Positions 1-44,632 of a DNA stretch of 44,632 nucleotides are shown here, one piece after another (position 1 is the stretch's first letter; each line of letters opens with the position of its first letter). The notes beneath the pieces were generated by a model. That model searched no databases. It saw only the letters and a program-made list of their open reading frames with translations, and was not told the origin of the DNA. This stretch comes from a phage: NCBI GenBank assembly GCA_031490075.1, contig GCA_031490075.1_4354.1; one strand, written 5' to 3'. The position numbers were made by a program, and so were the translations under genes.

Positions 1-10
1 AAAAAAAAAA

Positions 11-34
11 TCCCGGCTGGGTCAGGGCCGGGAT
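11..34 (-). terminator. Rho-independent terminator after the lysis cassette
   Basis: Hairpin TCCCGGC-N9-GCCGGGA preceded on the plus strand by A10, i.e. a U-run after the stem on the minus-strand transcript; lies just past the endolysin stop. Confidence 0.6.
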
Positions 35-98
35 AAAACTGGAGAGCAGAGGGATGGAGCAGGAGGTGATTTAAGTATCGTCGGATTAGTCTTATGTG

Positions 99-587
99 TC
101 AACCTTTCACCGCGCGCCCGATAGCCTCAGCCTCCTGCCACGGTTTACCGTCGAACAGCGCCAGACGACCGGCGGTACGACGACGCAGTCCAAGTATCGG
201 TTTGCCGTTCTGGTTGATGAACAGCGCCAGCTTAGCCCGCAGAGTCGTGACGTCACCAGAACGCAGTGCCTTACCTGTGCCAGTAGTAGCCGCAATCACA
301 CCGGCACCCGCGTTATACACCAGGTCGCACACTGCGTCGAACTGTGCCTGTGTCAATGAATGGTGTGCTGCTGCGTCAACCGCAGCTACGGCCTTAGCCA
401 TATCACGATTCAGTAACAGGAGTCCTTGTCCCGGGGTGATGGTCTGCCCCGCCTTAACATGCGGGCCATAGCTTCCATACCCAATAGTCAGGTACTTCTC
501 ATTCGGTGTAGCGCGATACGCGGTTCCGCGGAATCCCTCGAACGCGGCAGTGAATTTGATGCCATTATCTGAAATGTTTCGAGACAC
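99..587 (-). CDS. Endolysin, GH24 lysozyme (P22 gp19-like)
   Basis: Motifs NGIKF..EGFRGTAY..TIGYG and QAQFDAVCDLVYNAG..LRRRTAGRLALF resemble P22 gp19-type lysozymes. Start refined to GTG at 587 with GGAGGG 7 nt upstream; the longest ORF extends to 638. Confidence 0.8.
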   Translation of the reverse strand: MSRNISDNGIKFTAAFEGFRGTAYRATPNEKYLTIGYGSYGPHVKAGQTITPGQGLLLLNRDMAKAVAAVDAAAHHSLTQAQFDAVCDLVYNAGAGVIAATTGTGKALRSGDVTTLRAKLALFINQNGKPILGLRRRTAGRLALFDGKPWQEAEAIGRAVKG

Positions 588-837
588 GCTTATGCCCTCC
601 GTACGACAGCCACGACTGACGAATCTGTCGCAGCGCAACTAATGTGATTAATGTCTCAGGTAGCGTAGGTGACATGCTGCCCTGTAACAGGTGGATACAT
701 CCGGCGGCGCAGACAATAGCAGTCAGAATATAAAGCACACGCCCGAACAGCCAGTCGTCCACGTGTTCGTTATACACGTTGAACAGGGACGAAGCGCCCA
801 TTGAAAGCATTACGACAAACCAGAATAGCTCAGTCAT
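565..837 (-). CDS. Putative holin (small membrane protein)
   Basis: About 90 aa with two or three hydrophobic helices, immediately upstream of and overlapping the endolysin; ATG at 837 overlaps the stop of the upstream ORF. Confidence 0.5.
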   Translation of the reverse strand: MTELFWFVVMLSMGASSLFNVYNEHVDDWLFGRVLYILTAIVCAAGCIHLLQGSMSPTLPETLITLVALRQIRQSWLSYGGHKRVSKHFR

Positions 838-1138
838 GCGGTCCTCCTGGGCGGGCAATATCGCCGCCCGATACGATGCCAGAAAGGCGGGAATAGATAT
901 GCATCCAGAGAATAGCAATGATGAATCCGAGGCCAGCTATCTCGCGCTCGCCAGTAATACCAAACCATTGAGCGGCAAGAGGTGCGCCGAAAATGGCGCA
1001 CGCGAAGCCGGTGAGAAGAAATACCAGTCCGTCAATCGGCCCGGATATAGACTTTTTATGTTGTCTTAGTCCGACCAATCCACCGACCAGTGCGGCAGCG
1101 AGAAGCCACCCCGTCACTGTTTCAGTAAATTTACCCAA
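830..1138 (-). CDS. Putative holin/antiholin-like membrane protein
   Basis: 102 aa with about three hydrophobic segments; first gene of the lysis cassette. Confidence 0.45.
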   Translation of the reverse strand: MGKFTETVTGWLLAAALVGGLVGLRQHKKSISGPIDGLVFLLTGFACAIFGAPLAAQWFGITGEREIAGLGFIIAILWMHIYSRLSGIVSGGDIARPGGPHD

Positions 1139-3165: not shown

Positions 3166-3359
3166 TTCGCCCCTTTGAATTTAAAATTGTTGCCGATGAG
3201 TTTTAACTCATTAGCTTCGTAATAAACCGAAGAAGTTAATCCGTCCCGCCTGATATAACGGATGATATAGGACCCTGGGTATACGACAGACTCTTTTCCG
3301 ACAACACCAAAGCCATATGCTGTTTTCACCAACTGACCCTTCTTAAACATAACCATCAC
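3162..3359 (-). CDS. Hypothetical protein
   Basis: ORF directly downstream of the minus-strand promoter at 3385-3413. Confidence 0.45.
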   Translation of the reverse strand: MMVMFKKGQLVKTAYGFGVVGKESVVYPGSYIIRYIRRDGLTSSVYYEANELKLIGNNFKFKGAK

Positions 3360-3384
3360 TCCTCTGTCTCGTTCCGATAAGTGA

Positions 3385-3413
3385 ATAGTATCCTATTATG
3401 TTGGGGTGTGCAA
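3385..3413 (-). promoter_or_regulatory. Sigma70-like promoter with embedded palindrome (TTGCAC-N17-TACTAT on minus strand)
   Basis: Read on the minus strand: TTGCAC, 17-bp spacer, TACTAT; AATAG-N4-CTATT at 3384-3397. The flanking sequence is closely similar to the promoter at 2286-2314. Confidence 0.6.
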
Positions 3414-3577
3414 GATAATAGTTACGTTGCCGTTGTGATTCTTTTGTTTCTTAAAAGAGTACGCAACGCAGTGGGTGGGCGTTAGCCCACCCCAGCGGAG
3501 TGAAGTACTCTCTACCTTGCTCACGGCAACTATAGAAACTTTTAATTATCAGTGACTTGGATATTTAGGCGGGATTA

Positions 3578-3722
3578 ACAATAGACTTTGACCCTTCCGA
3601 AAGCGTCAGCGGAACTACACTCAAGTGCCTAATGGCACGCGTTGCGTTCCCTGCCGCTCCGCGGTCGCTTGCGATATCTCACAAGCTCAGTGAAGCTTAG
3701 CATATTTTCAAGTAAAAGTCAA
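3578..3722 (+). repeat. Copy 1 of a ~145-bp imperfect direct repeat (partner at 36292..36434)
   Basis: Shared blocks cccttccgaa, gcgtcagcg, aactacactca, cgcggtcgcttg, cacaagctcag, catatttt, aaagtcaa in the same order and orientation. Confidence 0.7.
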
Positions 3723-3769
3723 TACCAGTAGCATCTTTTGTATTTTAGTAACTTTGCGTGGTGTTTTGG

Positions 3770-3798
3770 TTGCTTTTACAAAGTTACCGCCTTATACT
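3770..3798 (+). promoter_or_regulatory. Sigma70-like early promoter (TTGCTT-N17-TATACT)
   Basis: Consensus-like hexamers with 17-bp spacing upstream of the first plus-strand gene; no palindrome. Confidence 0.5.
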
Positions 3799-3827
3799 TC
3801 GATACATATTACACAGGAGAGCGCGAG

Positions 3828-4342: not shown

Positions 4343-6628
4343 ATGTCCGATGTAATTTTATCCTACTCGTGGTCACGCCGCAACGCGCGGGCGGGAAAAA
4401 AGGATATAAATGTCAGAACCGCACACACGGCAACACTGGACGACCTGAAAGAGTTAATCCAGCCGCTCGATGCCGTTCGCGACGGGATTAACCCTAAGAC
4501 CGCGCCCGGTTATATCACCGCCGCGTGCGACTCAACGCACAGCACCGTAAAAGACCCGGAAACTGGAGACTTTAAGCAAGCGCGTAAAGGTTTTTTCTAC
4601 CGCTGCGATGCGTCTGTAAGCAAATCGTCGCTGGCCTATCTGGATTTCGACAGCACAACACCGGAAGAGTATCAGGAAGCGGTGCGCCTGGTTAAGCGCA
4701 GCCGCCGGGCTATGTGCCTCTATACTACGGCGTCACATACCGATGAGTCTCCGCGCTTTCGCGTCGTCATGCCGCTGGCCCGTCCTGTTGAAGGCGGCGA
4801 CATCATCCGCGTTCGCCATGGATTGTTGGAACACTTCTTCAAAGGCATGGGCGCTGACCGCAGCGGGTTCACTCTTTCACAACCGATGTACCTGCCGCCA
4901 GTTGGCTCTCAGGTTATCTGGTCACGCCGCAATGACCTGGTTAACCCTGACGAGTTACTGGAGGGCATACCGGATTACGAGGTGAGCAGCGCATCGGATT
5001 ACCAGATACCGGAAGAACTGCGCACCGCGTTTACGGATGCGTTCGAGGCACTCGCGTTCGAGTATGGCGGCGTCATGACACCGCGTGGCCTGAAAATGCC
5101 AGCTACGCCGGAACACGCAGAGAACTACAGCGACCCGACCCCGCGCCCGGATGACTTCCTGCTGTGCTTCCCGCGCGAGGGGTATGAAGCGCCTAACGTA
5201 ACCATGATCCACGACACTGACATCACGGCAACCGAAGGCATGTCGCCGAAAGAGGTGTGGAAATACGTGTGCGATGCGACCGGGCTGCCATTCAGTGAAG
5301 TGGCAGAGGCTATCGGATGGGGGGCGCGTGAATCTGTTTCATGCAGCCTCGACGACCTGGAAGACGACGAGGACCCAGAGGAAGATGAGTTACCGGAACC
5401 GGTAAAGGCTGATTTCGTCGTTGAGGGGTACATGCCGTCGGATTGCATCTGGGATATTGTCGGGGAATCTGGCACGTACAAATCGTTCTATACGCTGGGG
5501 ATGATGTACCTTAGCGCCGCCGGATACAGGTTTGCTGGGGCAGATACCCAGCGTTGCCATCACTTCTATATCGACGGTGAGGGTGGCGCCACCACACGAA
5601 CACGTATTGATGCACTCGCGGCTAAATATGGTGAGGAAGGTAAAGATTATGTACATGTCATCGATATGGGCGAAATACTCGCTACGCATGGTGATAAAAA
5701 AATTCCAGCTCTAATCCGCAGGATGCGCGAAACCGCAGTGGATGAACCTATTGGCATGGTTGCCTTCGACACCCTTAACCAGACGCTGGCCCTGACGATT
5801 GATAAGTTCGACGAGAACAGTTCATCAACGGCAATCGGTATGGGTAAAGTTATCGCCATCCTGAAAGAAGTGCGCGATGCAACTAAAGCCGCTGTCGGTG
5901 TCGTTCACCATACTCCGAAGGGCGGAAAGAAAGCCCGCGGCAGTGGAGCATTGTATGCGGGTGTCGACGTGGAACTGACAATCGAACGCGCTACCGACCG
6001 TCAGATAAACGTATACCACTCTAAATTTAAGCACGGGCCTCAGCAGAAGACGGTTGGCATGGTGCTGGAGTCGGTACAGTTCCGTGAAGCGCCGCCGCCT
6101 AAAGAATACCGAGCGGTTGAGTTCCTGGGTAGCACAGAGGAATACGGCACAATCGTAAACCTGGACCTGCCTGAACCACACAAGGCGCTTGTGTTGATGC
6201 CGTGGGGTTTCGAGCCGTTCAAAACTGACGAGGAGAAAGAGCGGGAAGAAGGGTTGACGAAAGAAGGTAAAGAAAATGTACGTAAAACCGTAGAGAACGC
6301 CGTCAACAGTTCGGAGGCCACGATACTCGCGGCGTTTGAACTGGCGGAAGGAACCTACAACGGCAACGAAGGCATCACAGTCGCCGCGGCGAATAAGCTC
6401 GCACAGTCAGACCCCAACGCAAAGGAGTTTAACTCCAAAGAAGCCATAGAACGCGGGAAGATTAAGAAAATGGTTGAGGCTGGGTATCTTGTTCCGGGTA
6501 CTGACGAAAACAATCAGATAATCCCAGGCCGTTACAGACTGAACACCATGATAACAGATAACAAGATTCCGAAGACAATATACGAACCGAATGAAATGCT
6601 GACAGTGACCGAGGAGGATTTGGAATGA
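4343..6628 (+). CDS. Replication protein with RecA-like ATPase domain (putative primase/helicase)
   Basis: 761 aa; Walker A-like GESGTYKS and downstream Walker B-like acidic motif in the C-terminal half; N-terminal domain of primase-like size; position in the replication module. Confidence 0.6.
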   Translation: MSDVILSYSWSRRNARAGKKDINVRTAHTATLDDLKELIQPLDAVRDGINPKTAPGYITAACDSTHSTVKDPETGDFKQARKGFFYRCDASVSKSSLAYLDFDSTTPEEYQEAVRLVKRSRRAMCLYTTASHTDESPRFRVVMPLARPVEGGDIIRVRHGLLEHFFKGMGADRSGFTLSQPMYLPPVGSQVIWSRRNDLVNPDELLEGIPDYEVSSASDYQIPEELRTAFTDAFEALAFEYGGVMTPRGLKMPATPEHAENYSDPTPRPDDFLLCFPREGYEAPNVTMIHDTDITATEGMSPKEVWKYVCDATGLPFSEVAEAIGWGARESVSCSLDDLEDDEDPEEDELPEPVKADFVVEGYMPSDCIWDIVGESGTYKSFYTLGMMYLSAAGYRFAGADTQRCHHFYIDGEGGATTRTRIDALAAKYGEEGKDYVHVIDMGEILATHGDKKIPALIRRMRETAVDEPIGMVAFDTLNQTLALTIDKFDENSSSTAIGMGKVIAILKEVRDATKAAVGVVHHTPKGGKKARGSGALYAGVDVELTIERATDRQINVYHSKFKHGPQQKTVGMVLESVQFREAPPPKEYRAVEFLGSTEEYGTIVNLDLPEPHKALVLMPWGFEPFKTDEEKEREEGLTKEGKENVRKTVENAVNSSEATILAAFELAEGTYNGNEGITVAAANKLAQSDPNAKEFNSKEAIERGKIKKMVEAGYLVPGTDENNQIIPGRYRLNTMITDNKIPKTIYEPNEMLTVTEEDLE

Positions 6629-33790: not shown

Positions 33791-33849
33791 AATTTACCTC
33801 TTAGTAAATGAAAAGAGGGACCGAAGTCCCTCTCGATTATAGCTTAACC

Positions 33850-34899
33850 TTAAGCACCAACACCAGTTACCAGGAAGGCAATCGGTACGTGCTTGCGGTC
33901 AACCACACGGTTCCAGTTGGAGGCGTTCGCCAGGTCCTGCCAGGAAGCAGAGCGCGGGGTAGTCTCGGTGCCGTTGCCAGTGATTACTGCACTGGTGAAG
34001 CTGTAACCAAACGGATGTAGCAACCAGGTCTTACGGGTCCACAGGGTTTCAACGCCGCCGCCGTTGCCGCGGGACGCTTCGCGCTCGTATTCCAGCGGGT
34101 TGGACGGAGAACCTTCACCGTAACCGATAGCGCCGTTGCCGAAGATGATGGAGATGAACTTACTGGTCGAGCCAGTGACGACTACGGTCATGCTGTCGTC
34201 AACAATCACGCGGTAGCCCTGGTAGGTGGCGAACATGGTGTTGTTGTCCGCGTCACGGATGAAGTCGATAAGCTGCTGCTTACGTGCCTGCGCATAAACG
34301 AAGCTATGCATCGCGATAGCCCCCCGCACTTCACCGCCGTTGCCCATCAGAGCATCGCCCATAGTCTGGGTAGCGTCGATGAACGCGCCCGCATCGAAGC
34401 CCAGAGTAGCAGACACGTCGATTACCATGTCATTCCGCTCGTGGTATGCGTCGGTAGCGGCTACGTTGTCATTGTACAGCCCGAGCGCGGTAGCAATCAG
34501 ACGGCGTTGTGCCTGACGCTGCCAGAAGTTATCCAGACGTGACGCTACGGATTGCAGCGGGTTCTGGCTGGTCAGTTCAACGGTCAAATCCGCCTGACCG
34601 AAACCTTCGTTCAGGTACGCAACGCGCGCCATCATCTCGCCGGTCTGCACGTTACGCGGGGTGGCGATGTCCTGGTATACGTCGTTCGAGTAGTTCGGCT
34701 CGATAGAGGTATCAATCGCTTTCCAGAAAGGAATATTAGCGACGTTGGACGGGCCGCGGGCAATCTCGGCAGCGTACGGGGTCGGGGTCAGAATACCAGA
34801 CTGGAAGAACGCGGTTTTTTCTACCGGGTCCTCGGTCATATAAGACGCCAGGACCGGGATGTTGCCAGTTACGATATCGCCGATAGTGGTAATTGCCAT
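33850..34899 (-). CDS. Major capsid protein
   Basis: 349 aa, directly after the scaffold-like gene; GAGGAAA SD; composition typical of capsid proteins. Confidence 0.65.
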   Translation of the reverse strand: MAITTIGDIVTGNIPVLASYMTEDPVEKTAFFQSGILTPTPYAAEIARGPSNVANIPFWKAIDTSIEPNYSNDVYQDIATPRNVQTGEMMARVAYLNEGFGQADLTVELTSQNPLQSVASRLDNFWQRQAQRRLIATALGLYNDNVAATDAYHERNDMVIDVSATLGFDAGAFIDATQTMGDALMGNGGEVRGAIAMHSFVYAQARKQQLIDFIRDADNNTMFATYQGYRVIVDDSMTVVVTGSTSKFISIIFGNGAIGYGEGSPSNPLEYEREASRGNGGGVETLWTRKTWLLHPFGYSFTSAVITGNGTETTPRSASWQDLANASNWNRVVDRKHVPIAFLVTGVGA

Positions 34900-34901
34900 T
34901 A

Positions 34902-35603
34902 TTATTTCCTCAGGGCTTTAAGTTGCCGTTCAAATTCGGCAGGGTTCGATTTATACAGGGCTAAACGCTCTGCTTCACTCATGTCTTTAAACGCTGGTGC
35001 GGCCCCGCCGCCTTTGCTACCGGAAGCCCCGCCGCCGGAAGCTGCATTTGCTTTGATCAAATGCGAAAACGCCTTGTGTTCGCGCAGGTATTTGCGGAAC
35101 TGTTCCGGGTCAGTCGTGATTACGTTACCGTCTGCACCAACAAACTTAGTAACCACATCATCGCCTTCGAACTCAGTCTTAACGAACGGCGCAAGAATGT
35201 CCACTGCTTCTGGGGTAATAAAGTCACCCGCGAAAGAGCCTAGCACCGCTTTACGTTCGCTGCCGAGGATACGCTCTGCCATTCTGGAGATGCGACCGTC
35301 TTTCTCGGCTAACACAGGGTCGTACTGGCTACGAATCGTCTTTTCGAACTCATCCATCTTACCAGCGGCTTTTAACGCCTCCTGGTGCGCGCGCTGCCGT
35401 TCTTCTTCGGCCTCTTTTGCTTTGCGAGCGGCTTCTTTCTTCTCCGCCAACAATGCTTCCTGATTAGCCTTAAGCCCGGCAACTTCTTTCTCAATCAGCG
35501 CCTGAACTTCTTCAGCGGTGAACATTTTAGGAGCGTCACCGCCACCAGCTTTATCTTCTGCCCCAGCTTCTTCCTGGAACGGATAACGTAAAAAACGATT
35601 CAT
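34902..35603 (-). CDS. Head scaffolding protein
   Basis: Glu/Lys/Ala-rich coiled-coil protein immediately upstream of the capsid gene; ATG 35603 with GGGGA SD. Confidence 0.55.
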   Translation of the reverse strand: MNRFLRYPFQEEAGAEDKAGGGDAPKMFTAEEVQALIEKEVAGLKANQEALLAEKKEAARKAKEAEEERQRAHQEALKAAGKMDEFEKTIRSQYDPVLAEKDGRISRMAERILGSERKAVLGSFAGDFITPEAVDILAPFVKTEFEGDDVVTKFVGADGNVITTDPEQFRKYLREHKAFSHLIKANAASGGGASGSKGGGAAPAFKDMSEAERLALYKSNPAEFERQLKALRK

Positions 35604-35685
35604 AGTCAGTATGTCCCCTGGACGTTGGAACCCGGGCCACCCGGATTTACATGTCAAGAATAAATTATTCCAACATGCAAGGCAA

Positions 35686-35949
35686 CTATTCCAGAATATT
35701 CCTCACGTAATCCTGCAACATGAACACTTTCAGCCGCAGCTGCCGTACGCATTCAGCATTCTGAACGTCGACGGCCAAATCCTCATCAGCGTCGCTACTT
35801 GGCTGCGCCAGTTTGCACGGCGGCTGCATCATCGTCGTATCCGGGGATGGAATTGGCGTTGGCGACGGCGCGGGACTTGAGCTGCACGCGCTCAGGGTCA
35901 AAAGTGCACACGCTGCGACCAGGCGTTTTAATGTACTTAACGACTTCAC
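35686..35949 (-). CDS. Outer-membrane spanin component (Rz1-like lipoprotein)
   Basis: Signal peptide ending in the lipobox LSAC, then a Pro-rich segment; starts inside the Rz-like gene in a different frame. Confidence 0.5.
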   Translation of the reverse strand: MKSLSTLKRLVAACALLTLSACSSSPAPSPTPIPSPDTTMMQPPCKLAQPSSDADEDLAVDVQNAECVRQLRLKVFMLQDYVRNILE

Positions 35950-36181
35950 GGGTAATCACCTCTGATTTCGTCTTGCCTTCGTTGTCAGCGGCGGCGGCCT
36001 TCGATTCATCCTGCTGCTGCCGTTGTGTTTTCTTCGCTAACTCAGCCTGTGCTTTCTGCTGTTGCTGCGAAACGAGATTAGCCCGGCCTTCGTTCCATCC
36101 GCTGCGATACTGGTAGATGCCGTGTGCGTAAACCAGGATGATGAAACATGCTCCTGCTACGACAGTTGCTTTAAGATTCAT
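35795..36181 (-). CDS. Inner-membrane spanin component (Rz-like)
   Basis: N-terminal transmembrane helix followed by a Gln/Ala/Lys-rich coiled coil; contains the lipoprotein ORF. Confidence 0.55.
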   Translation of the reverse strand: MNLKATVVAGACFIILVYAHGIYQYRSGWNEGRANLVSQQQQKAQAELAKKTQRQQQDESKAAAADNEGKTKSEVITREVVKYIKTPGRSVCTFDPERVQLKSRAVANANSIPGYDDDAAAVQTGAAK

Positions 36182-36291
36182 GTTTCCCCTTTCTCGATAA
36201 GTAAAGCCCCGCCATAAAGCGGGGCGCTAGTCCTTATCATTTAAACATAGAAACGGCGTAATCTCAGTAAACCAGTTACTTTTTACACAAG

Positions 36292-36434
36292 CAATAGAGT
36301 ATGGCCCTTCCGAACGCGTCAGCGTAACTACACTCAGGACTTACGTCCCGCTCCGTTACCTGCCCGCGCCGCGGTCGCTTGTTCATACTTCACAAGCTCA
36401 GGTGGAGCTTATCATATTTTTAGTGAAAAGTCAA
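36292..36434 (+). repeat. Copy 2 of the ~145-bp imperfect direct repeat (partner at 3578..3722)
   Basis: Same conserved blocks in the same order as copy 1. Confidence 0.7.
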
Positions 36435-36500
36435 CTATTCGAATAGTTTATTCCAACATTTACAATTTAGTGGAATAACTGGAATACATAAACAAATAGT

Positions 36501-36529
36501 TTGCGCACCCCGATATAATAGGGTACTAT
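36501..36529 (+). promoter_or_regulatory. Sigma70-like promoter with embedded palindrome (TTGCGC-N17-TACTAT)
   Basis: TTGCGC, 17-bp spacer, TACTAT; AATAG-N4-CTATT at 36517-36530; GAGGAGG SD follows. Confidence 0.65.
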
Positions 36530-36556
36530 TCATTCTATCGAACCGAGGAGGCCGCC

Positions 36557-36637
36557 ATGTTAGTCGTTATTTCAGTAGTAATTGCAGTTGATGCGGTGAT
36601 GTTTCTTTGGGCTTGTAGTGGTATTGGTGAACTATGA
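36557..36637 (+). CDS. Small hydrophobic peptide (26 aa)
   Basis: Strong SD; stop overlaps the lipoprotein start. Confidence 0.3.
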   Translation: MLVVISVVIAVDAVMFLWACSGIGEL

Positions 36638-36978
36638 AATATATTAAATTAGCAGTAGCGGGTGTTGTAGCCGTCTGTTTGAGTGGTTGCGTAAGGTCGT
36701 TGCCAGACCCAGCTTTACAGGTTTATCAGGCAGGGGATACAACGGCAACATGTAATCAGTTACTATCGAGAATCGCCACGACAAAACAAGCTCAAGCCAA
36801 CGCTACGCACCGTGTTAATAAGCAAATAGGTACTAACGTTGTACTCGGTGTTACAGGCGCATTCCTGATTGTTCCGCTGTTCTTTATGGACACGGGCGCC
36901 GGGCCTTCTATGGACGAGATGACAGCCGGTAATCGTCTGTCGCAGTTACAACAAACATACGACGAGAAATGCAAATGA
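36634..36978 (+). CDS. Lipoprotein with additional hydrophobic segment
   Basis: Signal peptide with lipobox LSGC; later hydrophobic stretch VVLGVTGAFLIVPLFF; plus strand inside the minus-strand head module. Confidence 0.65.
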   Translation: MKYIKLAVAGVVAVCLSGCVRSLPDPALQVYQAGDTTATCNQLLSRIATTKQAQANATHRVNKQIGTNVVLGVTGAFLIVPLFFMDTGAGPSMDEMTAGNRLSQLQQTYDEKCK

Positions 36979-37051
36979 CAAATAGTGTGATGTTTTATGT
37001 TGTTTTGTTGGTATCGGCTGCGGTTATCACCGCGATGTTCATACAAAAATA

Positions 37052-37073
37052 AAGCCCCGTAAGGGGCTTTTTA
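37052..37073 (+). terminator. Rho-independent terminator
   Basis: AGCCCC-GTAA-GGGGCT followed by TTTTT. Confidence 0.6.
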
Positions 37074-37096
37074 TCATTCCGGCTTTTTATCATTCC
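37065..37096. repeat. Tandem duplication of a 16-bp unit (GGCTTTTTATCATTCC x2)
   Basis: Two identical adjacent copies; the first overlaps the terminator stem and the second reaches the stop codon region of the minus gene 37090..37551. Confidence 0.7.
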
Positions 37097-37551
37097 GGCT
37101 TAGTAACCTTCGCCGCTTTACTGACGGCCTCTACCCCATCGGCATCAGTAACTTTAACGAAGCATTCGCTGACCGCATTAACCGTCAGAGACAGAGCCTC
37201 CTCAGGCACATTCACCACTTCCTTACCGTCTTTGTACCAGGTCAGAGAATACGGCGCTTTGCCTGCCTTAACCTCGACAGTGATGGTTGCGCTGCCGCCC
37301 GCCAGTTCAGCGTCCTGCGGTTGCGCAGAGAAATACACGTCGCCAGCGTCCGCCAGATACGGAATTTCATAAAGCATACCGGCGGCGGGCAACGCAATAC
37401 CGGTTTTATCTGCAAACGGCATATCATCTACCGGTGTACCGAGTACACTTTCGTCCCCAATAAATACCACGTTCTCGCCAGAGCCAGACACGCGGGCGTA
37501 CTGGACTACGCGACGAGACGGTACGTCAGTTACTTTGAAAAAGCCCATCAT
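37090..37551 (-). CDS. Hypothetical protein with C-terminal Ig-like region
   Basis: APYSLTWYKDGKEV resembles Ig-like repeats; downstream of the head morphogenesis gene. Confidence 0.45.
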   Translation of the reverse strand: MMGFFKVTDVPSRRVVQYARVSGSGENVVFIGDESVLGTPVDDMPFADKTGIALPAAGMLYEIPYLADAGDVYFSAQPQDAELAGGSATITVEVKAGKAPYSLTWYKDGKEVVNVPEEALSLTVNAVSECFVKVTDADGVEAVSKAAKVTKPE

Positions 37552-38736: not shown

Positions 38737-39390
38737 ATGAAACTGCAAACATTAGAGTTCCCTTATGGAGAAATCACTTTTGACCGTGAAAACTTTATTA
38801 ACGTAAACGAGCTGGTTGACCAGATGAACCGTTGGCGTTTAGACAACGGCATGGGGGCCAGAGAGCTTCGCCAGGTCATGGCAACGGATGGCTTCAAGAT
38901 TTTCAAGGAGGAATGCGAAAAACAACTCGGAATCGAGAATGCCATAAGGGCGACGAAAGGCCGAAACGGTCGCACCTTTGCATGTCTCCATCTGGCAGTA
39001 TATATTGCTGAGCAATACAGCGCCTATTTCCATTTCCTCGTTATAGACCGCTTTATCACACAACGGCAGGTAGAACTACGAAACATTGGCGCGGTGAGCT
39101 TTGTCGAGCTTAACGCTGCCGTTAGTCGAATGATCGAGCGCACGGAGGGAAGAATTGGCCACAGTGGACACTTCATACAGGTGGCTAAAGCGGTAAAGGA
39201 ATCCGTAGATATCCGCGACGTAACGGGTTTCGATACATGGGACTCTCAGGATGCGAAGACCAATCAGTTGCGAAGTGACATCCAGAAAGCTCTGGTGACG
39301 CTTCTTGACATGGAGGCCGTTAATACATGGGGTGAACTGAAAGAGGCGATACCTCGGGTTGTGCGTAAATGTGCGGCTAATATACGTTAA
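38737..39390 (+). CDS. KilA-N domain protein
   Basis: N-terminal GEITFDRENFINVNELVDQMNRWRL resembles the KilA-N pattern (FDENGR...N...L...RFDNWLRL) of P1 KilA-type proteins; GGAG SD. Confidence 0.55.
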   Translation: MKLQTLEFPYGEITFDRENFINVNELVDQMNRWRLDNGMGARELRQVMATDGFKIFKEECEKQLGIENAIRATKGRNGRTFACLHLAVYIAEQYSAYFHFLVIDRFITQRQVELRNIGAVSFVELNAAVSRMIERTEGRIGHSGHFIQVAKAVKESVDIRDVTGFDTWDSQDAKTNQLRSDIQKALVTLLDMEAVNTWGELKEAIPRVVRKCAANIR

Positions 39391-39396
39391 AACTAA

Positions 39397-39420
39397 GGCC
39401 CCTAGCGGGGCCTTTCTATT
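39397..39420 (+). terminator. Rho-independent terminator
   Basis: GGCCCC-TAGC-GGGGCC followed by TTTCTATTT. Confidence 0.6.
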
Positions 39421-40901: not shown

Positions 40902-42173
40902 TTAAAGTGCGAAAGTCACCGGGACATTAATAACTGGTTTGCGAATCGGCATTTCATACGCGATAGGATATGTGGTCCCGTCGTTCTGGTGGTCCACACC
41001 ACCCGATTTATCCGGTTCGCCGTTCTTGTCGTAAGCCTGTTGCTCCAGGCATCGCGCGGTAACCGGGCAAGCCTGCTCATTAATCATGACCATACCAGAT
41101 TCAAGCGCCTTATTCATCGCCGCTACGCGGTCTTTAACCGGTGGGTTTGTCGATTTAGCGCGCACTTCGAAGCCGGCCTGCTGTAACTGGGCAATATCAG
41201 ATGTGCTGGCGTTGTTACTTTTACGGTTTTTACCGCTTGCGTCGGGGTACATAACGATATAGTGACCCTTACTTTTCCAGCGCTCTGTTACGGCTCTCAC
41301 CACATCGGGCGTATCGAACATATCCACCAACTCGGCGACTGCATGCCAGACTTTGCCACGTTGCACGTAAACTGTACTAGCCATGTGGCCTACGTTAAAG
41401 TCCTGCCCGATATACAGAGTCTCGCCTGGTTTTATTGTTTCGCGGCTGCTGTTTTTCCTGCGGTCATAGGCGTAATAGACAGTCCCCGCCGTCAGGTTGA
41501 CGAACTCGCCGTTGATGTAGGCGTCAATCAACTGACCTGGGTATGTGTCGCGTAACGACTGCACATAATCTTCTGGCAGGAACGGGTTAGACAGGGTGGA
41601 CGCCTGAATCATCTCGTAGCCTGGATTCTTTTTGACTACCCAGCGGTCATGTACGAAACGGAATCCTTCCGGGGTAGTGAACACGGAAACGGTATTAGCA
41701 GGTTTCGGTGTAATAGGTTTATATGTCCGCGGCAACTGGCGGTTACGGGCGATGACTTTGTTCCACGCGTGCTCGGCGTGCTCCATGTTAAGGGTGTCCA
41801 ACTCGTCGATTTTCGCACGAAACGATTCGTAGCCAACGATTCGTGCTGGATTATCAAGTGTACGCAGAACAAAATCCCCAAATTGCCCGGAAGACGTATA
41901 GATTATGTTGTCAGACTTGTTGTATTTGTACCGGATACCCCAGTCGGTGAGCTTTTCTTCCATACGCGGTGCAAGGATGAGGCGCACCAGGTCATAAGTC
42001 GGCTCATACATGGCGATGATAGAATCGCTACCACCTTCCATGCTGTCGAGTAGTGCAGAGTTGCACATAACTTCGGATTTACCCGTACCGAAGCCAGCTA
42101 CGAATGCCGGAAACTTGCAATGCATACCGAGAAACGCGCCTTGCGGCTCCGTTGCCGTGATATTAACGTTCAC
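40902..42173 (-). CDS. Terminase large subunit
   Basis: N-terminal Walker A AGFGTGKS; C-terminal nuclease-like region with conserved acidic residues (YPDASG); 423 aa. Confidence 0.85.
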   Translation of the reverse strand: MNVNITATEPQGAFLGMHCKFPAFVAGFGTGKSEVMCNSALLDSMEGGSDSIIAMYEPTYDLVRLILAPRMEEKLTDWGIRYKYNKSDNIIYTSSGQFGDFVLRTLDNPARIVGYESFRAKIDELDTLNMEHAEHAWNKVIARNRQLPRTYKPITPKPANTVSVFTTPEGFRFVHDRWVVKKNPGYEMIQASTLSNPFLPEDYVQSLRDTYPGQLIDAYINGEFVNLTAGTVYYAYDRRKNSSRETIKPGETLYIGQDFNVGHMASTVYVQRGKVWHAVAELVDMFDTPDVVRAVTERWKSKGHYIVMYPDASGKNRKSNNASTSDIAQLQQAGFEVRAKSTNPPVKDRVAAMNKALESGMVMINEQACPVTARCLEQQAYDKNGEPDKSGGVDHQNDGTTYPIAYEMPIRKPVINVPVTFAL

Positions 42174-42672
42174 CGGACACCACCTTAATTGTTACTTCGC
42201 TGATTGGCTCGTCGCGTACTTCTTCGGCGACAACTGTTTTATTCAGGCCCAGTTTCGCGGCAGCAAACGTAGCAGAGATGCCCGCGGCCCCCGTTTCAGT
42301 GAAGTATGCCTCTTCCAGCGCCTGTGCTGTCTCCCAGGCTTCTGCAAATGCGGGAATCTCACGCAGCCAAAGCTTAATAATAGGGATAGTGACGCCGATG
42401 TGTAAGGCGAAGCGGGCCAGTGACGGGGGTTTATCCTGAATCAGCGGGCGTTCGTCACCCTTAGACGTAGGCACAAGCTCCCACGACGTGCGGTCGAAGA
42501 ACTCGATTAGTGCATCGCAATAGCCCGGGTCCCACAACGCGGCGGAATTACGGGATGATTGATAAAGGCTCTGTTTACCGCGCGGTCGTTTACGGCGACG
42601 GTTTGCGCTAACAGCTTCTTCATGTGCAGCTTGTACCACCTCTGGCGATGGCTGCTTAAGTTTCAGCTTCAT
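42163..42672 (-). CDS. Putative terminase small subunit
   Basis: Overlaps the start of the large terminase gene; basic N-terminal region; ATG 42672 with GGGGA SD (the longest ORF extends to 42711). Call is by position only. Confidence 0.45.
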   Translation of the reverse strand: MKLKLKQPSPEVVQAAHEEAVSANRRRKRPRGKQSLYQSSRNSAALWDPGYCDALIEFFDRTSWELVPTSKGDERPLIQDKPPSLARFALHIGVTIPIIKLWLREIPAFAEAWETAQALEEAYFTETGAAGISATFAAAKLGLNKTVVAEEVRDEPISEVTIKVVSGER

Positions 42673-43117
42673 AGAATCCCCTTGCATATGCGTCTGACCA
42701 TCAGAGCGCACCAGACGCGCCCTACGCGTCTAAAGGGATTATATAAGGGGATTGGGCGGGATGTACAGAAAAGCCCTCCGTAGAGGGCTTGTATCAGTTA
42801 TATAGGCCGTGGCGTGGCGCTCGTTTACCGTCGCCGCCGTAATGGTCGTTAGCTACAGCGATAGCCCAGGCATTCGGAAAGACTAAAAGTTGCATTAAAT
42901 TCCTCAAGGTCTATTTTACGAATACATGGTGAAAGGCAATCAGCGAAAACCAACTCACCAGAATCGATAACGACGAATCACCAGCCTTTGAATATGTTCT
43001 CGGAAATACCCTCCGCAACTTCGCGTACATTAGGCATGTGTTCTGGGAAATCGTGGAAGTTTCTGGACAAAAATTCAAGTGCCTCACACCGGTTTATGTG
43101 GTAGTTATCATATTCAA

Positions 43118-44398: not shown

Positions 44399-44547
44399 TC
44401 ATTTCTTCTCTCCTGCATAAGCTGCTTTAAGTGTCTGCATCGCAGCGAACCAGAACGCGTCCGCTGGAATGCTGTTGCTCAGGTTACTAACTGCGATGCG
44501 CGCCATCAGTTGCGCGTCTTTGAATGCTTCGGTATCTGTGATTTTCA
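44399..44547 (-). CDS. Hypothetical small protein (49 aa)
   Basis: GGAG SD upstream of ATG 44547; first gene after the right-end minus-strand promoter; below the ORF-track cutoff. Confidence 0.35.
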
Positions 44548-44581
44548 TTTTCTCTACTCCGTTCTCGTTGTCGATGAAGTA

Positions 44582-44610
44582 AATATAATAGGGTCGAGGA
44601 TAATAGTCAA
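44582..44610 (-). promoter_or_regulatory. Sigma70-like promoter (TTGACT-N17-TATATT on minus strand)
   Basis: Consensus-like hexamers with 17-bp spacing reading leftward into the small-gene block. Confidence 0.5.
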
Positions 44611-44632
44611 CTAGTCATCACAGAAAATAGAT

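Follow-up and report, generated by a model that had tools for sequence, protein, structure and literature searches.

An overlapped spanin gene pair of the 'Jersey' family in the head gene block of a Kagunavirus genome, and the conserved elements upstream of it

The stretch of DNA analysed here (the window, 44,632 nucleotides) is a complete, circularly permuted genome of a Kagunavirus phage (Guernseyvirinae), and it carries on its minus strand two overlapping genes with the features of a two-component spanin. The first-pass annotation had described an Rz-like open reading frame together with a lipoprotein frame bearing an LSAC lipobox and a Pro-rich segment, and both are found in the ORFs and on reading the sequence. 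The i-spanin (Rz-like) gene occupies 36181..35795 (minus strand), starts with ATG and encodes 128 amino acids. Its product has a predicted N-terminal transmembrane helix at about residues 5-23 (ATVVAGACFIILVYAHGIY, Kyte-Doolittle mean of 1.85), with Lys4 on the N-terminal side and an Arg/Glu-rich stretch following. The remainder, predicted to be periplasmic, includes a long helix and only one cysteine, Cys92. This corresponds to a type II inner-membrane topology with a single N-terminal transmembrane domain, and the curated i-spanin homologue is annotated with 'TMHMM predicts single transmembrane domain'. A single-sequence AF2 model has one unbroken helix from residue 3 to residue 63 (pLDDT 75-92) and another at residues 69-79, while residues 80-128 have pLDDT values below 50, that is, low confidence in the C-terminal half; two helices and a beta-containing linker have been predicted for the i-spanins of this subfamily (Kongari 2018, PMC6139136). 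The protein matches the PHROG profile phrog_2536, 'Rz-like spanin', over its full length (E=4.8e-57), and it is 100% identical to its counterpart in Bas71, 96.9% to that in K1ind2, 91% to the curated i-spanin of Shashou, and 63-78% to those of SETP3 and other jerseyviruses.

The o-spanin (Rz1-like) gene (35949..35686, minus strand) starts with GTG in the +1 frame relative to Rz and encodes an 87-amino-acid precursor. It overlaps the Rz gene by 155 nt and runs 109 nt beyond the Rz stop, so that its class is 'overlapped' and not 'embedded'; the overlapped spanin arrangement proposed earlier is thus upheld, while the idea that the lipoprotein ORF is contained in the Rz ORF is not. A Shine-Dalgarno sequence, GAGGTG (35957..35962, minus strand), lies within the Rz coding sequence, 7 nt before the GTG, and the Shashou record has an annotated ribosome-binding site at the corresponding position. 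The N-terminus reads MKSLSTLKR-LVAACALLTLSA-C22-SSS and comprises a signal peptide with a hydrophobic core (Kyte-Doolittle mean of 2.3) and the lipobox LSAC, with Cys22 as the predicted lipidation site, Ser as residue +2 and no Asp. The mature protein would be short (66 amino acids) and Pro-rich, with 8 Pro within its first 25 residues, and it ends in ...LQDYVRNILE; Cys45 and Cys67 of the o-spanin and Cys92 of the i-spanin are periplasmic cysteines that could form homotypic disulfides. Two PHROG profiles match, phrog_1267 over residues 9-86 (E=3e-21) and phrog_5672 over residues 41-87 (E=2.4e-30), residues 37-87 are 80-99% identical to relatives, and the curated o-spanin of Shashou, which is equally long, is annotated 'Contains N-terminal lipobox'.

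Comparison with related phages covered 56 loci, with i-spanin identities as low as about 46% (Hafnia TS33) and with the dhillonvirus Envy among them. In all of them the gene order is MuF, Hoc-like, spanins, scaffold, capsid, which puts the spanins between the Hoc-like and scaffold genes. A missing lipoprotein frame in related phages had been named beforehand as evidence against the pair; it was looked for, and the frame is kept, open and with a signal peptide and lipobox Cys, in 56/56 loci. Its upstream 39-40 codons always give a basic n-region, a hydrophobic core and the lipobox Cys, and the lipobox sequences themselves diverge (LSAC, LASC, LSGC, LNGC, VTGC, ITGC, LFGC). The two genes remain adjacent, with overlaps of 173, 158, 155, 152, 107, 98, 14 or 8 nt among relatives. 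Within the overlap, codon-position variability follows the Rz frame, and beyond the Rz stop it follows the Rz1 frame, with a value of 0.27 at codon position 3 against 0.10 and 0.04 at the others. The third reading frame of the locus is packed with stops. The pair of ORFs is not a product of chance, given that every locus keeps an open +1 frame with signal peptide and lipobox and that stops fill the third frame.

Judged by the sequence similarity of both proteins to listed members, the pair belongs to the published 'Jersey' family of overlapped spanins and is in that sense already known. The 'Jersey' i- and o-spanin families include K1G, K1H and K1ind1-3, as well as Jersey, SETP3 and HK578. For these families the overlap has been reported as 155 bp in Jersey and 8 bp in FSL_SP-031, and Cys45 and Cys67 of the o-spanin as constant (Kongari et al. 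2018, PMC6139136); all three features were reproduced here. The pair shares with the family the 155-nt overlap, the two o-spanin cysteines and the site between head/decoration genes and scaffold, it shows no substantive difference, and it is another kagunavirus allele. It is present in about 660 phage records and annotated in hundreds of GenBank records. Pfam and NCBIfam gave sub-threshold matches only, to DUF2514 (16.8 bits, cutoff 26), P2_Rz1 (17.3 bits, cutoff 27) and LppU, and were dropped as a basis for membership, and PADLOC returned nothing meaningful for the spanins or the adjacent inserts. A search of the literature found no Jersey-family spanin with a genetic or biochemical test, and neither the lysis paper on jerseyvirus S10 nor the BASEL paper holds spanin experiments.

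As in lambda Rz/Rz1, a predicted type II inner-membrane protein, whose periplasmic part is modelled as helical in its N-terminal half, is combined with a small Pro-rich protein encoded in the +1 frame and predicted to be an outer-membrane lipoprotein, both with periplasmic cysteines and with a presumed role in the last step of lysis; however, the lambda Rz1 gene is fully embedded whereas the gene here is overlapped, and sequence similarity to lambda Rz/Rz1 is undetectable beyond the PHROG/Pfam twilight zone. In lambda, the S-R-Rz/Rz1 cassette opens the late operon and Rz/Rz1 are its last genes, while here the pair lies 8.55 kb from the other lysis genes and heads a predicted scaffold-capsid unit. 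The overlapped architecture is shared with LysB/LysC of P2, to which the weak NCBIfam P2_Rz1 match points (E=0.004), but this match is below the cutoff and does not place the pair in that family; lysB and lysC of P2 lie within the lysis cluster beside holin and endolysin, unlike the pair here. PseT.3/PseT.2 of T4 belong to the separated class, are located among early/middle genes of a large myovirus and are unrelated in sequence to the pair, yet they are the textbook example of spanins that function although unlinked (PMC6139136, Fig. 8 legend).

Downstream of the spanins, the next cistron is the head scaffolding gene (35603..34902, minus strand, ATG at 35603; phrog_206, E=3.4e-55), and the major capsid gene (34899..33850, minus strand; phrog_247, E=3.6e-118) and a terminator found by terminator scan (33834..33813, minus strand) follow. 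Upstream of the spanins, the plus-strand lipoprotein insert described earlier is real and lies at 36634..36978. The holin-like genes and endolysin that had been placed at 99-1138, next to a terminator, are likewise confirmed by profile matches and by the terminator sequence. There are two holin/antiholin genes (1138..830 and 918..565, minus strand; phrog_2359, E=9.7e-32, and phrog_2508, E=3.9e-31), whose homologues are curated in Shashou as class I and class II holin/antiholin, and an endolysin of the phage lysozyme family (maximal ORF 638..99, minus strand; Pfam PF00959, E=1.7e-25, and PHROG endolysin families), which in relatives starts about 36 nt further in. The strong intrinsic terminator after the endolysin, CCCGGC-N9-GCCGGG followed by T10, straddles the window start (about 35..1, minus strand) and is annotated in Shashou as well. 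An ORF at 38737-39390 (plus strand) with the PHROG label 'amidase (lysis)' was rejected as a lysis gene, having no amidase domain, no sequence relative in the PDB and only a sub-threshold KilA-N match.

In this linearisation the spanins are about 35 kb from the holin and endolysin, as the first-pass annotation had remarked, with the caveat that the genome ends might fall near the window edges. The caveat was correct. The window end (44546-44632) aligns to bases 2661-2748 of the circular genome of SZH-1 and the window start (4-107) to the adjacent bases 2749-2852, and since the window ends are contiguous in this relative, the distance of 35 kb (35.5 kb) is a product of the point at which the record was opened, just past the endolysin gene of a circular map. 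Packaging in these phages is headful, without fixed termini (PMC6763661, PMC6776780, PMC6776784, PMC6753286, PMC9409062). Measured across the junction, 8,550 nt separate the endolysin stop from the Rz ATG, and the interval contains about a dozen small ORFs, terS, terL, the portal gene, the plus-strand insert, MuF, the Hoc-like gene and at least one terminator. The Hoc-like gene is followed by a bidirectional terminator (37051-37070), which would end the unit upstream of the spanins. The lysis genes thus do not form a contiguous holin-endolysin-spanin cassette of the lambda type, being 8,550 nt apart with a terminator and packaging/head genes between them. More generally, apparent long distances in linearised genomes of headful phages should be measured on the circle.

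The earlier view that the split is notable is weakly supported, although the separation is real: the position in the head block is the invariant, published and ordinary arrangement of the subfamily, fixed throughout Kagunavirus and Jerseyvirus and seen in Dhillonvirus too. Spanins apart from holin and endolysin are described explicitly for the kagunavirus Schulenberg (PMC6763661), and the gene numbering of SeF1 shows the same pattern (PMC9409062). In a kagunavirus transcriptome, the lysozyme, MuF-like and capsid genes fall into one temporal class (PMC12645636). That paper, on K1B4, leaves the spanins unannotated and uses coarse time classes, and the support it gives to co-expression is weak. 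Contiguity with holin and endolysin is in any case no requirement for being a spanin.

We consider it highly probable (about 0.9) that the two genes make up a functional spanin of the two-component kind, belonging to the 'Jersey' family, and that they head the scaffold/major capsid transcription unit, an assignment of function drawn from homology and architecture. By analogy with the lambda/T4 paradigm, the N-terminal helix would hold the i-spanin in the inner membrane, from which a largely helical domain would reach into the periplasm, while the o-spanin would be translated from the GTG inside the i-spanin gene, processed at LSAC, lipidated at Cys22 and, given the Ser at +2, delivered to the outer membrane. 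The C-termini of both proteins would bind to give a complex that spans the periplasm, and Cys92 of Rz and Cys45 and Cys67 of Rz1 would probably stabilise it by forming homotypic disulfides. After release of the endolysin by the holin and destruction of the murein, this complex would become free to fuse or disrupt the inner and outer membranes as the last step of lysis. Spanins do no harm as long as the wall is intact, so they need only be made alongside the virion proteins, and linkage to holin and endolysin is unnecessary. The finding bears out that in Guernseyvirinae the spanins belong to the capsid operon.

Other readings of the pair have to be weighed against this one. That the second frame gives a soluble product of 47-48 amino acids or nothing, only the Rz-like gene being real, is very improbable. 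It would agree with most GenBank records, in which a 47-amino-acid product lacking signal peptide and lipobox is annotated as a CDS of 144-147 nt from an internal ATG (Golestan gp08, Bas71_0009 and many others), with the 47 positions of the phrog_5672 profile and with the variability in the overlap, which tracks the Rz frame; yet the codons upstream of this ATG keep the signal peptide and lipobox in all loci despite divergence, the GAGGTG precedes the GTG whereas no comparable Shine-Dalgarno sequence is seen ahead of the internal ATG, and specialist curation takes the 87-amino-acid form (Shashou, SETP3 ORF8). Gene callers systematically miss or truncate o-spanins (Kongari 2018), and for this large, therapeutically used phage group the correct o-spanin appears to be the 87-amino-acid, GTG-initiated lipoprotein, which most public records truncate. 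The location between head morphogenesis/decoration genes and scaffold in every relative might instead suggest a head-assembly or virion-associated membrane factor with a merely topological likeness to spanins, but membership in a spanin family at the sequence level and the conserved pattern of periplasmic cysteines typical of spanins go beyond topology, the pair is the only combination of a lipoprotein and a type II membrane protein in the genome, which holds no other spanin candidate although the host is Gram-negative, and T4 demonstrates that unlinked spanins work (PMC6139136); we regard such a factor as highly unlikely. As to the notion that the separation is purely an artefact of the opening of the record, the spanins in truth abutting holin and endolysin as a normal cassette, its probability is close to nil: contiguous window ends and headful, circularly permuted packaging do make the 35-kb figure an artefact, but the gene map already refutes the rest, with the 8,550-nt gap on the circle occupied by terS, terL, portal, MuF, Hoc-like and two terminators, and with no holin or endolysin gene closer than 2.5 kb to the spanins among 48 loci on viral contigs (0/48).

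A further question of interpretation concerns the hairpin at 36206-36225 that the first-pass annotation had seen ahead of the spanins, which proves to be real and conserved with compensatory changes. It is part of an extended stem-loop (36195..36239, minus strand) with inner, middle and outer stems, located 13 nt upstream of the Rz Shine-Dalgarno sequence. The G+C-rich inner stem (36225..36206), found by terminator scan, has 8 pairs, 7 of them G-C, and one pair occurs as CG, GC, AU and UA among relatives; the outer stem is TGATAAG/CTTATCG here and, in the 36 distinct relatives in which the hairpin folds, GATAAG/CTTATC in Kagunavirus as against TATACG/CGTATA in Jerseyvirus. The tail contains 6/9 T in Kagunavirus (TTTACTTAT) and 4/9 T in Jerseyvirus (TTAGCGTAT), and the hairpin is terminator-like but not canonical. 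It is unlikely to be an ordinary intrinsic terminator of the upstream head-gene transcript, with the spanins made by leaky read-through, even though the 8-bp G+C-rich stem, the T-containing tail and its detection by the scan would fit. The upstream unit is already closed by the better bidirectional terminator at 37051-37070, a conserved promoter-like site and a conserved leader of 200 nt lie between that terminator and the hairpin, and the T-tract is poor, yet the outer stem is maintained by compensatory changes; moreover, the scaffold and capsid genes downstream need high expression, and the hairpin is not called a terminator in the curated Shashou record.

The spanin and scaffold-capsid genes are preceded by a series of conserved elements, from which the promoter and the boundaries of the transcription unit are predicted by consensus promoter and terminator matches. 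Promoter-like site A (36406..36434, minus strand) is a consensus match with TTGACT, a spacing of 17 nt and an extended -10 element, TGaTAAGCT, and it is conserved in Kagunavirus and Jerseyvirus with the consensus ..GACTT..N..T.TG.TA.GCT; PVP-SE2 has a promoter annotation at the corresponding site. Directly upstream lies an operator-like block (36436..36487, minus strand) of direct and inverted TATTCC/GGAATA (GAATA/TATTC) repeats, which is also conserved in both genera and, at loci with the moron insert, remains on its spanin side. The GAATA/TATTC motif forms two clusters only in the 44.6-kb window, here and at 35658-35702. Between promoter A and the hairpin preceding Rz, the core of a leader RNA of about 120 nt (copy A, 36285..36405, minus strand) is predicted to fold into a hairpin, P1, and a long irregular stem-loop, P2-P3-P4, followed by a single-stranded GGAAGGG. 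Independent minimum free energy folds of 10 variants share one architecture. Covariation in the leader is strong: in a realignment guided by the covariance model, and thus fitted to that model, 93.7% of cells are paired compared with 30-39% in slid controls, and double changes occur in 11/29 pairs. RNAalifold on sequence-only MAFFT alignments under-called the leader, giving the closing stem and fragments only, because variable hairpins are misregistered in those alignments. Rfam 15 has no relevant match at E<=1 for 35500-37200. An ORF of 36 amino acids within the leader (36386..36276), listed as a hypothetical protein in several records, is not a gene, being broken in relatives by 1-nt indels, an 11-nt deletion and loss of the start.

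The promoter pattern has one other match in the window, copy B (3722..3694, minus strand; TTGACTTTTACTTGAAAATATGCTAAGCT), and directly behind it lies a second copy of the leader core (copy B, 3694..3572, minus strand), which heads a minus-strand unit that includes small ORFs and extends as far as the holins and endolysin; downstream of the core is a G+C-rich hairpin (3492..3473, minus strand). The covariance model scores copy A at 148 bits and copy B at 102 bits, and Rfam 15 has no match at E<=10 for 3350-3800. The two copies are 76% identical pairwise, and the central hairpin GGGAC/GTCC of copy A becomes GTGCC/GGCAC in copy B. Copy B is present in Shashou, where blastn missed part of it and nhmmer and the covariance model recovered it, and in some IMG/VR contigs; an exact-pattern scan of viral contigs returns mostly copy A and misses diverged B copies. 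It is absent from SZH-1 and SETP3, and a shared promoter and leader as a universal link of both lysis units was rejected on the ground that these two phages have the spanin copy alone and phages of the TO17 type have neither copy.

The leader RNA is previously undescribed and is the only lead here worth following. Tentatively, and with the odds against the proposal as a whole, the spanins may open the scaffold-capsid operon under an undescribed module of GAATA operators, sigma-70-type promoter and a leader with the long non-canonical hairpin at its 3' end, in which the leader would be cis-regulatory and set the timing or level of both lysis units. It would do so as a cis-acting RNA, for example through put-like antitermination or as a processing or stability signal. 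Analogies for the leader are the pR'-6S RNA-tR' region of lambda with Q antitermination and the put RNAs of HK022, of which putL and putR head two operons. The arrangement here would resemble the former in having a strong promoter, then a transcribed leader of some 200 nt with a hairpin at its end, and lysis/head genes immediately downstream, and the latter in that a promoter-proximal structured RNA heads two predicted operons, both copies lying directly past near-identical promoters and consisting of a hairpin and a long stem-loop, with hairpins and internal terminators beyond. Unlike these systems, however, the leader shows no sequence or Rfam relation to them, its hairpin has no good U-tract, no Q-like gene was identified in this genome, and copy B is missing from many relatives. 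If the proposal holds, the paralogous leader would explain how a split lysis system is coordinated, and an RNA that controls late or lysis expression would be a new class of phage cis-regulatory RNA in a tractable family of E. coli and Salmonella phages.

A second regulatory-looking block (35604..35702, minus strand) spans the last Rz1 codons (AGG AAT ATT CTG GAA TAG) and the Rz1-scaffold intergenic region. It contains the GAATA/TATTC inverted repeats at 35658-35702, a TTGACA at 35657..35652, a small hairpin, CCGGG-NGG-CCCGG, at 35644..35632 and the Shine-Dalgarno sequence of the scaffold gene. Between Kagunavirus and Jerseyvirus the block is nearly invariant, at synonymous sites too, whereas the codons just upstream of it vary.

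The two minus-strand ORFs read as a spanin pair in the first-pass annotation are both present. The Rz-like i-spanin (36181..35795, 128 aa) matches phrog_2536 ('Rz-like spanin') over its full length (E=4.8e-57), and the Rz1-like o-spanin (35949..35686, 87 aa, +1 frame), matching phrog_1267 and phrog_5672, starts with a GTG that follows GAGGTG by 7 nt. Near its N-terminus the i-spanin is hydrophobic (residues 5-23, Kyte-Doolittle mean 1.85), and a Gln/Ala/Lys/Glu-rich region comes next; in a single-sequence AlphaFold model residues 3-63 form one continuous helix (pLDDT 75-92) and the C-terminal half is without resolved fold. The o-spanin N-terminus, MKSLSTLKR-LVAACALLTLSA-C22-SSS, forms a lipoprotein signal whose +2 residue is Ser, and 8 Pro occur among the first 25 residues of the 66-aa mature protein, bearing out the LSAC lipobox and Pro-rich segment proposed for it; its cysteines are Cys45 and Cys67. 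The lipoprotein ORF had been described as lying in another frame within Rz, which is correct as to the frame but not as to the containment: it overlaps the i-spanin ORF by 155 nt and then runs 109 nt past its end, and the arrangement is therefore 'overlapped', not 'embedded'.

By its sequence the pair belongs to a known family. A published survey assigned Jersey, SETP3, K1G, K1H, K1ind1-3, HK578 and others to the overlapped-class 'Jersey' i- and o-spanin families, with an overlap of 155 bp in Jersey and 8 bp in FSL_SP-031 and with o-spanin cysteines constant at positions 45 and 67 (Kongari 2018, PMC6139136); the 155-nt and 8-nt overlaps and Cys45/Cys67 were each recovered independently here. 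Identity of the i-spanin is 100% with its counterpart in Bas71, 96.9% with K1ind2 and 91% with Shashou, whose curated record resembles the window in its 128-aa i-spanin, 87-aa o-spanin, 155-nt overlap and remark 'Contains N-terminal lipobox'. Our literature searches turned up no Jersey-family spanin that had been studied experimentally, and the mechanism proposed here follows the lambda and T4 paradigm, by which one subunit in the inner membrane and a lipoprotein subunit in the outer membrane would bridge the periplasm, and the complex would disrupt or fuse the membranes after the endolysin has removed the murein.

The reality of the +1 frame was assessed in 56 related loci, comprising 48 IMG/VR contigs retrieved with the i-spanin and GenBank records of Kagunavirus, Jerseyvirus, TO17-like phages, Hafnia phage TS33 and the dhillonvirus Envy. 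The frame is open in all 56, each encoding a basic n-region, a hydrophobic core and a lipobox cysteine, while the lipobox itself varies (LSAC, LASC, LSGC, LNGC, VTGC, ITGC, LFGC). Among 47 distinct sequences, the third Rz codon position varies most where Rz alone is encoded (0.27 vs 0.14 and 0.11), and the third Rz1 position varies most past the Rz stop (0.27 vs 0.10 and 0.04); in the stretch that both genes share, the pattern follows mainly the Rz frame, as would be expected where the partner encodes only signal peptide and linker. The third frame is full of stops. Loss of the lipoprotein frame in relatives, which would have spoken against a spanin, is thus not what the open frames, lipoboxes and codon signature display, and together with the PHROG matches and Jersey-family membership this conservation upholds the overlapped two-component identity. 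In a genome-wide scan only three ORFs carried lipoprotein-type signals, the o-spanin alone being paired with a type II membrane protein, and no spanin-like genes were found beside the endolysin.

In most GenBank/RefSeq records of this phage group the o-spanin is a 47-48 aa product from an internal ATG, without signal peptide and lipobox, such as Golestan gp08 (4887-5030 of locus L001) and Bas71_0009 (5283-5429 of locus L002), equivalent to 35686-35832 in the window; the phrog_5672 profile was built on this truncated form, and i- and o-spanin labels are swapped in some records (PVP-SE2). Within the same family the overlap ranges from 173 nt down to 8 nt (relatives' loci L007 and L103 (TO17), and L045; window equivalent 35795-35949), the o-spanin signal peptides have no sequence relationship, and this range reproduces the overlapped-to-separated transition treated in Kongari 2018.

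The holin-like genes (1138..830 and 918..565, minus strand), the lysozyme-family endolysin (638..99, minus strand) and the adjoining strong terminator at the window start were confirmed, and Rz had been placed about 35 kb from them. That gap is real but its size is not: the 35.5 kb from the Rz start to the endolysin in linear coordinates is an artefact of writing the map as a line, and in circular form 8,550 nt separate the endolysin stop (99) from the Rz ATG (36181). A caveat about genome ends proved apt, since the last 87 bases of the window (44546-44632) map to 2661-2748 of the circular SZH-1 record and its first bases (4-107) to the directly adjacent 2749-2852; the 44,632-bp window is therefore a complete genome, with its circular map cut open immediately past the endolysin terminator. 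A query of 4.9 kb that included the spanin locus matched 485 phage records, best of all Escherichia phages vB_EcoS_SCS44 and Golestan (94% identity), placing this phage with Kagunavirus, subfamily Guernseyvirinae. Headful (pac) packaging was predicted by PhageTerm for four curated kagunaviruses and one jerseyvirus (PMC6763661, PMC6776780, PMC6776784, PMC6753286, PMC9409062), and here too headful packaging, with fixed genome ends absent, is predicted.

The genes concerned (holin, endolysin, terminase, head and spanin) all lie on one strand, in the order holins, endolysin, terminator, small ORFs, terS (42711..42163), terL, portal, a plus-strand insert, the MuF-like head morphogenesis gene, the Hoc-like gene, a bidirectional terminator, a variable slot, Rz/Rz1, scaffold and major capsid. 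The order MuF, Hoc-like, spanins, scaffold, capsid holds in 56/56 loci, Envy likewise having its spanins between the MuF and scaffold genes, and a holin or endolysin occurs within the spanin flanks in none of the 56. The remaining separation is known and does not vary within the subfamily: hundreds of records annotate it, it has been stated in print for the kagunavirus Schulenberg (PMC6763661), and it is smaller than it first appeared. Unlinked spanins have their classic precedent in T4 (PMC6139136). Spanins are inert until the wall is degraded; they therefore need only accumulate late, and selection does not require them to be linked to holin and endolysin. In a kagunavirus transcriptome the lysozyme, MuF-like and capsid genes form one temporal class, the spanins being without annotation there (PMC12645636).

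Judging by conserved consensus signals, a scaffold-capsid transcription unit probably has the spanin genes as its first cistrons and is served by a promoter, repeats resembling operators and a structured leader of its own, a reading in keeping with spanin biology. A non-coding block conserved between Kagunavirus and Jerseyvirus directly follows the terminator of the Hoc-like gene, upstream of a hairpin, and in genomes that carry a moron here it is found on the spanin side of the insertion. It holds, on the minus strand, TATTCC/GGAATA repeats (36487..36436), a sigma-70-like promoter site (TTGACT, 17 nt, TGaTAAGCT; 36434..36406) and a leader of ~200 nt with a structured element of ~120 nt (P1-P4), repeats, promoter and element spanning 36285-36487. 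The hairpin noticed upstream of Rz is real: its inner stem (36225..36206) is conserved with compensatory pairs, one pair appearing as CG, GC, AU and UA, and is nested in a T-tract-poor stem-loop (36239..36195), not called a terminator by curators, whose outer stem is GATAAG/CTTATC in kagunaviruses but TATACG/CGTATA in jerseyviruses. Outside this block the genome has a single further cluster of GAATA/TATTC motifs, in the last Rz1 codons (AGG AAT ATT CTG GAA TAG) and the Rz1-scaffold intergenic region. There, 35604-35702 (minus strand; last five Rz1 codons, stop and intergenic sequence) is nearly invariant across the two genera, synonymous sites included, and combines the inverted repeats found upstream of the promoter with a small hairpin, CCGGG-NGG-CCCGG; it probably acts as an operator or in the control of translation, and it overlaps the codons for the C-terminus of the o-spanin.

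Ten distinct leader variants, folded independently, all fold alike, with a 5' hairpin followed by a long irregular stem-loop (P2-P3-P4) and then by GGAAGGG in single-stranded form. When 52 copies (26 distinct) were re-aligned with a covariance model built from the leader, the model-fitted alignment had standard pairs in 93.7% of pair cells vs 30-39% with partners slid, both-sided changes in 11 of 29 pairs, and a covariation score of 0.215 vs 0.090 in shuffles, 0/500 of which reached 0.215. The leader has no match in Rfam, and this promoter-leader module with its covarying RNA is previously undescribed. A 36-aa ORF in the leader (36276-36386, minus strand), annotated as a hypothetical protein in several relatives (Shashou_007, Bas71_0007), is probably not a gene, because 1-nt indels disrupt it and jerseyviruses have lost its start through a deletion.

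Elsewhere in the window the promoter pattern recurs exactly once, on the minus strand at 3722..3694, where it is followed by a paralogous leader (3694..3572; block 3572-3722) that is 76% identical to the spanin copy, its central hairpin changed from GGGAC/GTCC to GTGCC/GGCAC, with a G+C-rich hairpin downstream (3492..3473). This second copy heads a unit running through small ORFs to the holins and endolysin. The spanin copy occurs in every Kagunavirus and Jerseyvirus genome examined, the second in the window, Shashou and some metagenomic contigs; the second is absent from SZH-1 and SETP3, and TO17-like phages, Hafnia TS33 and Envy have neither. A general coupling of the two lysis loci through the second copy is therefore ruled out, since that copy is not universal; candidate roles for the leader RNA include a cis-acting antitermination, processing or stability signal.

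The plus-strand lipoprotein insert near the spanins is part of a two-gene moron (36557-36978) that occupies the variable slot separating the Hoc-like gene from the spanin leader; its products are a hydrophobic peptide of 26 aa and a lipoprotein of 114 aa (lipobox LSGC, Cys19; phrog_13472) with an additional hydrophobic helix at residues 67-85. The moron was found in only 11 phage records, all with at least 99% amino-acid identity against 92-94% identity for the backbones, a contrast suggesting that it spread horizontally not long ago. With its lipobox and transmembrane domain the lipoprotein formally resembles a unimolecular spanin, but its periplasmic segment is only ~47 aa; our guess would be a role in superinfection exclusion. 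A second opposite-strand insert (38737-39390, plus strand), between the portal and MuF genes and followed by a terminator (39395-39414), encodes a 217-aa protein matching phrog_6095 ('amidase / lysis', E=9e-121); that label looks wrong, as the protein has no amidase domain and no sequence relative was found in the PDB, its sole Pfam match being a sub-threshold KilA-N (DNA-binding). In Shashou the same slot holds instead a sliding-clamp-like gene.
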